DNA of 23,959 nucleotides from a virus. Its lineage: Duplodnaviria > Heunggongvirae > Uroviricota > Caudoviricetes. Each line of letters starts with the position of its first letter. The first letter of the stretch is position 1. A program made the position numbers and the translations under genes. A model generated the notes under the pieces. It made no database searches and was not told the origin of the DNA. It saw nothing but the letters and a program-made list of their open reading frames with translations. Shown in pieces: positions 6,191-7,429 of the stretch. The stretch spans positions 1 through 23,959 of the IMG/VR virus record IMGVR_UViG_2648501400_000002; one strand, 5' to 3'.

Positions 6191-6767
6191 ATGTTGCAAT
6201 GAATGGTTTATACCAAAATATCAAAATCAATATTGGTGTAATGAGATTTGTGGAACCAAGATAGCACTCGAACGACGAAGTAAAGAACGCGAAAAAGCGG
6301 AAAAAGCAGCAGAGAAGAAACGACGACGAGAGGAGCAGAAACAGAAAGATAAACTGAAGATTCGAAAACTCGCCTTAAAGCCCCGCAGTTACTGGATTAA
6401 ACAAGCCCAACAAGCCGTAAACGCCTTCATCAGAGAAAGAGACCGCGACTTACCATGTATCTCGTGCGGAACGTTCACGTCTGCTCAGTGGGATGCCGGA
6501 CATTACCGGACAACTGCTGCGGCACCTCAACTCCGATTTGATGAACGCAATATTCACAAGCAATGCGTGGTGTGCAACCAGCACAAAAGCGGAAATCTCG
6601 TTCCGTATCGCGTCGAACTGATTAGCCGCATCGGGCAGGAAGCAGTAGAGGAAATCGAATCAAACCATAACCGCTATCGCTGGACTGTCGAAGAGTGCAG
6701 GGCCATCAAGGCGGAGTATCAACAGAAACTTAAAAAACTGCGAAACAGCAGAAGTGAGGTTGCATGA
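6165..6767 (+). CDS. ninG: NinG (Rap-like recombination protein) with a replaced N-terminus
   Basis: From [30 protein letters not shown]... onward near-identical to recalled lambda NinG. N-terminus [15 protein letters not shown] differs from lambda [18 protein letters not shown]. Overlaps the HNH ORF by 26 nt. Confidence 0.85.
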
Positions 6768-7429
6768 ATATCTACGAAAGAATTGATGGCAGCAAATACC
6801 GAAATATTTGGGTAGTTGGCGATCTGCACGGATGCTACACGAACCTGATGAAAAAACTGGAGACGATAGGATTCGACACCAAAAAAGACCTGCTTATCTC
6901 GGTGGGCGATTTGGTTGATCGCGGTACAGAGAACGTAGAATGCCTGGAATTAATCACATTCCCCTGGTTCAGAGCTGTACGTGGAAACCATGAGCAAATG
7001 ATGATTGATGGCTTATCAGAGCGTGGAAACGTCAATCACTAGCTGCTTAATGGCGGTGGCTGGTTCTTTAATCTCGATTACGACAAAGAAATTCTGGCTA
7101 AAGCTCTTGCCCATAAAGCAGATGAACTTCCGTTAATCATCGAACTGGTGAGTAAAGGAAAAAAATATGTCATCTGCCACGCCGATTATCCTTGTGATAA
7201 ATACGAGTTTGGAAAGCCAGTTGATCATCAGCAGGTAATCTGGAACCGCGAACGAATCAGCAACTCACAAGACGGGATCGTGAAAGAAATCAAAGGCGCG
7301 GACACGTTCATCTTTGGTCATACGCCAGCAGTGAAACCACTCAAATTTGCCAACCAGATGTATATCGATACTGGCGCAGTGTTCTGCGGAAACCTCACAT
7401 TGATTCAGGTACAGGGAGAAGGCGCATGA
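6764..7429 (+). pseudogene. ninI: NinI-like Ser/Thr protein phosphatase interrupted by one in-frame amber codon (TAG at 7040-7042)
   Basis: ORFs 6764-7042 and 7148-7429 are in the same frame and together match recalled lambda NinI. The only break is TAG where lambda has TGG (…[25 protein letters not shown]…). Confidence 0.85.

Follow-up and report, generated by a model that had tools for sequence, protein, structure and literature searches.

A single amber codon interrupts the phosphatase gene ninI of a defective lambda-like Escherichia coli prophage

In bacteriophage lambda, the gene ninI (orf221) lies next to the late antiterminator gene Q and encodes, in 221 codons, a Mn-dependent Ser/Thr protein phosphatase. 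It is non-essential once the polarity of its knock-down on Q is complemented, and lambda phages with deletions of the whole nin region still form plaques (PMC10695390). The copies carried by Stx2 phages and the E. coli allele WP_001028854.1 are open and annotated as serine/threonine protein phosphatase. In contrast, the copy described here is interrupted. It was found in a stretch of 23,959 bases, hereafter called the window, which is the whole contig JHSW01000066.1 of the draft assembly GCA_001266175.1. The interruption resembles the classical lambda amber (sus) mutants and the nonsense pseudogenes of cryptic prophages, where likewise a TGG-to-TAG transition leads to a truncated product. Unlike in the lambda sus mutants, the lesion affects a non-essential gene of a natural isolate and has no tie to growth in a suppressor host.

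The ninI frame and its amber codon

Straight translation of positions 6764 to 7429 gives a frame of 221 sense codons with a single internal TAG and a terminal TGA (Table 1). The two ORFs of this region, one of 92 aa with an ATG start and one of 93 aa with a GTG start, begin 384 nt (7148-6764) or 128 codons apart, which places them in the same frame, and the 105 nt that separate them are open. The second ORF begins at 7148 because this is the first in-frame start codon past the TAG. At the base equivalent to 7041, lambda ninI has a G and the window an A. The first-pass annotation had described the two ORFs as parts of one frame whose sole interruption is a TAG where lambda has TGG; the 384-nt offset together with the straight-through translation, and the alignment to lambda, confirm both points. 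The G-to-A amber lesion is a deterministic fact of the sequence and involves no statistics. A deamination hot spot at a Dcm site was considered and rejected, as the context is CACTGGC and not CCWGG.

Table 1. Features of the ninI region and of the tail-fiber module, in window coordinates.
Feature	Position	Strand	Description	Basis
ninG (rap)	6165..6767	+	intact; TGA overlaps the ninI ATG (ATGA)	PF05766; 99.5% to CD45 NinG, no stops
ninI (lambda orf221, Ser/Thr protein phosphatase) pseudogene	6764..7429	+	221 sense codons and one internal amber	
N-terminal fragment	6764..7042	+	92 aa, sole product expected to be translated; without His139 and His186	ORF, translation
Premature amber codon	7040..7042	+	TAG from TGG (Trp93), G-to-A at 7041	translation and allele comparison
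C-terminal remnant ORF	7148..7429	+	residues 129-221, GTG start, probably untranslated	no Shine-Dalgarno
Shine-Dalgarno-like GGGAGAAGG	7414..7422	+	GGAG ends 7 nt before the Q start	sequence; putative function
Q, lambda-type late antiterminator	7426..8049	+	207 aa, intact, ends with TAG	PF03589; 99.5% identity, no stops
Alternative tail-fiber C-terminal cassettes	21181-21609, 21620-22081	+	shared N-terminal MGEGSALPVGVPVPWPTATPPAGW segment	
Tail-fiber assembly gene	22088-22702	-		
Tail-fiber gene with internal repeats	22702-23841	-		

If codon 93 is read as Trp, the product (repaired NinI) matches the Pfam family Metallophos (PF00149; 63.5 bits at a cut-off of 21.5, residues 14-187), PHROG 246, "NinI-like serine-threonine phosphatase" (E=2.6e-121) and, over all 221 residues, the structure of the lambda phosphatase (PDB 1G5B; E=2e-146). 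Stop aside, its protein identity to lambda NinI is 95%; at the nucleotide level, 29 of 666 positions differ from lambda ninI (NC_001416, 43224-43889), changing 11 residues beyond the stop. These matches and the 29-nt distance from lambda uphold the earlier gene call, and they indicate that the locus is a lambda-type Mn-dependent Ser/Thr protein phosphatase gene, ninI, within a lambda-like E. coli prophage. Repaired NinI does not reach the equivalog cut-offs of the host phosphatases PrpA and PrpB (275.1 vs 326 bits for NCBIfam PRK11439 and 233.1 vs 332 bits for PRK09968), and is therefore assigned to the phage NinI type, a related homolog of PrpA/PrpB.

The window gene shares with its lambda counterpart the slot next to Q, the 221 codons and all encoded catalytic motifs, among them the N-terminal GDLHG (residues 19-23), GDLVDRG (48-54) and GNHE (74-77). 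It differs from lambda ninI at codon 93, so that 92 residues are translated, in the 11 substitutions mentioned above, and in its upstream neighborhood: ninH, which in lambda separates ninG from ninI, is absent from the window, and ninG thus overlaps ninI directly. Downstream, the ATG of Q overlaps the TGA of ninI (ATGA), and lambda has the same overlap. Where members of the family have an uninterrupted frame of ~221 codons, this locus has the TAG at 7040-7042, and the internal stop makes it a pseudogene of the NinI-like PPP-family metallophosphatases and not a working member.

Closest alleles and distribution of the TAG allele

A single base, G vs A at 7041, distinguishes window ninI from the intact allele WP_001028854.1, which is encoded, e.g., by E. 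coli O157:H7 PV15-279. This is the commonest intact allele of E. coli prophages, present on at least 1,000 contigs in an exact-protein look-up. The four closest Stx2 phage alleles (phages 2851, 1717, LC159 and WGPS4) all have TGG at codon 93, and the ninI/pphA genes of phages 2851 and 1717 differ from the window copy at three further sites beyond 7041. Neither the full-frame translation nor the 1-nt comparison with the intact allele revealed a second lesion in window ninI. The distance of one base from a working allele and the lack of a second lesion indicate a single, evolutionarily very recent step.

In line with a rare allele, a 61-mer centered on the TAG had no exact match in 5,426 complete E. 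coli genomes, a search that covered 1,699 ninI places in 1,081 records from 1,078 genomes and in which every match had at least one mismatch, nor in 67 phage records. A 35-mer with the TAG was likewise not found in GTDB representative genomes, IMG/VR or JGI metagenomes. The comparison with orthologous prophages that had been suggested earlier thus shows TGG in the closest alleles and no TAG allele in complete E. coli genomes or phage records. The first-pass annotation had left two explanations side by side, a recent inactivating point mutation and expression confined to an amber-suppressor host. The former is well supported by the distance of 1 nt from a widespread allele, by the lack of a second lesion and by the absence of the TAG from the complete E. 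coli genomes and phage records searched; the latter, discussed below, found no support.

In an exact-protein index of ~153 billion gene positions, three other contigs encode the 92-aa product with a genuine stop codon directly after it, and TAG-bearing contigs in the large assembly index number only four, the window contig included. The TAG allele is very rare. Logan contig SRR19671056_181 is 100% identical to window positions 5400-9946 (4,547 nt), TAG included; SRR19671056 is a separate run and assembly, which stems either from another isolate or from repeat sequencing of this strain. The TAG is also present in two infant-gut ENA metagenome scaffolds (L012 and L013, from BioSamples SAMN05827037 and SAMN10275672), which correspond to the prophage of strain CD45 apart from G7041A, plus one extra site in L012.

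These additional copies bear on whether the real gene has TGG and the TAG arose through an error of sequencing or assembly. The contig belongs to a draft genome assembled from short reads, the first 89 bases resemble untrimmed Nextera adapter or a chimera and suggest imperfect data cleaning, and the allele is missing from all complete genomes. However, a different SRA run was assembled separately into the identical 4,547 nt, TAG included, two metagenome scaffolds of other projects have the TAG as well, and position 7041 lies outside any homopolymer. As the TAG is reproduced in other sequencing data, a simple base-call error is unlikely, and we regard an error of either kind as exceedingly improbable. 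Similarly, the three other TAG-bearing assemblies make it unlikely that reads of this position would show TGG.

The TAG-bearing copies fall into two haplotypes. Over 3.2 kb, 16 sites tell these apart, and the markers closest to the TAG are those at 6474 and 7326. A second independent G-to-A transition and the exchange of a patch no longer than 851 nt fit these data equally well. The occurrence on two haplotypes counts against a simple single origin and could hint at selection or at a hot spot, i.e., at loss of ninI being adaptive for the lysogen, or at codon 93 being prone to mutation, with repeated hits as the result. Further interrupted copies could be read in the same way. In one metagenome scaffold (L022; ENA ERZ28574866 scaffold_27075, ~800-803), a 1-nt frameshift deletion affects the same TGG codon 93 (CACTGCTG vs CACTGGCTG). 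Chance, a local hot spot or an error of assembly may account for it. Among the interrupted copies retrieved by the C-terminal ORF, this deletion and the 5' truncations of ninI in L019 and L020 are the only ones that look like real lesions.

Several points speak against repeated selection or a hot spot. The look-ups targeted this exact truncation, which biases them toward recurrence; there is a handful of carriers against no fewer than 1,000 contigs that bear the intact allele; and patch exchange between mosaic lambdoid prophages explains the haplotypes equally well. L012 and L013 may moreover share one cohort or strain, and other apparent lesions turned out to be scaffold gaps of Ns (L023 and L024), a contig start (L021) or two 1-nt deletions that are possible sequencing errors (L018). 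We therefore consider an adaptive loss or a mutational hot spot very unlikely. The hit of codon 93 on a second haplotype and the deletion in L022 are weak evidence for anything beyond chance or recombination, and occasional, varied hits in ninI are as expected of a dispensable gene. That a knock-out of ninI, or its conditionality via low-level UAG readthrough, has been selected repeatedly in lysogens is highly improbable; if true, it would mean that the phosphatase of the phage is costly to the host or plays a regulatory part there.

Six contigs that end exactly after codon 92 had been suspected to represent assembly breaks due to a TAG/TGG polymorphism. They contain no stop codon and were rejected as background, since partial N-terminal prefixes at contig ends exist at every length from 89 to 95 aa (in this control, 2, 18, 8, 5, 1, 4 and 2 contigs for 89, 90, 91, 92, 93, 94 and 95 aa).

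Predicted consequences for NinI and for Q

Repaired NinI was aligned with lambda NinI and with P1-like, two Vibrio, Pseudomonas, BF23 (T5-like) and Listeria phage phosphatases, eight sequences in total; the identities of the latter six lie between 66% and 30%. Among the columns without variation are D20, H22, D49, R53, N75, H76, W93, H139 and H186. In the lambda phosphatase, D20, H22, D49, N75, H139 and H186 serve as metal ligands and H76 as the general acid. The 1G5B structure was described by Voegtli et al. (2000), a study cited in PMC3224144. The codons for His139 and His186 are kept in the DNA but lie downstream of the amber codon 93, and the translated product stops at residue 92.

On its own, the 92-aa fragment aligns to PF00149 over no more than profile positions 2-72, and no Pfam match was obtained for the isolated C-terminal ORF. 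The sequence upstream of 7148, TTAATCATCGAACTG, contains neither a GGAG nor another Shine-Dalgarno sequence, and the gene caller did not call this ORF on the contig. As the stop parts the N-terminal catalytic motifs from H139 and H186, neither fragment should be active. Thus, no active phosphatase would be made from this allele, and the Mn-dependent activity is predicted to be absent.

Full-length NinI could still be produced conditionally, either with the help of a suppressor tRNA or by leaky termination at UAG-C. In E. coli, termination at UAG is comparatively weak when a C follows, and some natural coliforms are reported to carry amber suppressors. The frame downstream of the TAG is fully intact and the same TAG is present in more than one sample, both of which would fit a conditional gene. 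However, a young mutation would leave the downstream frame intact in any case, and the stop is not conserved in any ortholog of complete genomes or phages. ARAGORN found no tRNA gene in the 23,959 bases of the window. Moreover, the residue inserted by common amber suppressors is Gln, Ser, Tyr or Leu and not Trp, so that the suppressed product would carry a substitution at the invariant Trp93, and Q, which also ends with TAG, would be extended in a strongly suppressing host. We thus rate a functional but conditional ninI as highly unlikely. Low natural readthrough of UAG-C might possibly yield traces of a W93Q protein. The expression in a suppressor host that had been proposed earlier is unsupported: the window has no tRNA gene, the stop is unconserved and Trp93 is invariant.

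Loss of ninI translation might also affect Q. To judge from its own Shine-Dalgarno-like sequence, Q should be able to start translation independently of ninI. Rho-dependent polarity on Q was considered and is not indicated: the untranslated segment comprises 383 nt with a C/G ratio of 0.93 and has no C-rich, G-poor stretch. Strong polarity on Q therefore appears unlikely, particularly under N antitermination. Among the 24 genes called in the window, Q (stop codon at 8047-8049) is the sole one to end with TAG besides the ninI lesion; 12 end with TAA and 11 with TGA.

Prophage background and meaning of the loss

The prophage is already defective through loss of tail genes. Of the 192 codons of gene Z, 86 remain upstream of the cut at ~20451 (junction ~20451-20459; ORF 20194-20499), where the gene is fused to unrelated sequence. 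A Hin/Pin-type recombinase gene lies beyond the junction on the minus strand (20537-21109), and tail genes U to J have been lost. The Z junction is not spanned by any complete E. coli genome. The chimeric 101-aa Z ORF is also found in the Logan assemblies of SRR29460006 and SRR14860202, indicating that the junction is real and represents a deletion or rearrangement shared within a lineage. The region from 20537 to 23959 forms an invertible tail-fiber module that is 98-99% identical to modules at the ends of other E. coli prophages.

All other P-to-FII genes with a counterpart in the closest complete genome, that of strain CD45 (NZ_CP182220.1), are intact. Apparent stops from tblastn in O and FII are not lesions: those in O fall into the non-homologous, adapter-like first 89 bases, and in FII it is the length that differs, as window FII has 117 aa, presumably the lambda length, and the CD45 form (23216-23590) is longer with 124 aa. 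Conversely, the window copy of the S49 head protease/scaffold gene (16638-17957) is open, but that of CD45 (20025-21344) has an internal stop and carries a pseudogene annotation. Together with the difference in FII, this indicates that related prophages carry their own private lesions.

Two further observations concern the contig itself. Positions 1-89 are unlike related prophages, and homology to gene O starts at 90; an exact Nextera mosaic-end 16-mer, TGTGTATAAGAGACAG, occupies positions 74-89 and is preceded by a short palindrome (CACAAATCCCC GGG TGGGGATTTGTG). Adapter left untrimmed, or a chimeric read, is the probable source of this segment at the end of the contig. In the nin region, ninE and an HNH endonuclease gene are separated by an inserted ORF of 590 aa (3264-5036, minus strand). 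Neither Pfam nor PADLOC gave a match for this ORF, which is 99.8% conserved in CD45, and a perfect hexanucleotide microsatellite, (TATTTC) x 12.8, lies upstream of it at 5353-5429. This ORF could be a moron or a defense gene, perhaps a phase-variable one.

Taken together, a recent loss-of-function nonsense mutation in a dispensable prophage ninI very probably explains the locus. According to this model, a single recent G-to-A transition, which turned Trp93 from TGG into TAG, would have inactivated ninI. Translation would end after residue 92, keeping three catalytic motifs and losing His139 and His186, and the downstream ORF of 93 codons, with no ribosome-binding site and no catalytic N-terminal half, would not give an active phosphatase. 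Three circumstances presumably made the loss tolerable: ninI is an accessory gene and dispensable for the growth of lambda, Q would start from its own Shine-Dalgarno site, and selection on the prophage as a phage would be relaxed once its tail genes were gone.

The amber allele is a case of ordinary prophage gene decay, known in kind and involving no new mechanism, and it matters little beyond annotation and opens no new question. For annotation, the locus is to be given as a ninI pseudogene with an internal stop, not as two hypothetical proteins or as a "partial metallophosphoesterase". It is a clean case in which an already defective prophage has lost an accessory gene very recently and in one step. 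As the role of the lambda phosphatase is poorly understood, natural ninI nulls such as this one could serve as ready-made isogenic comparisons.
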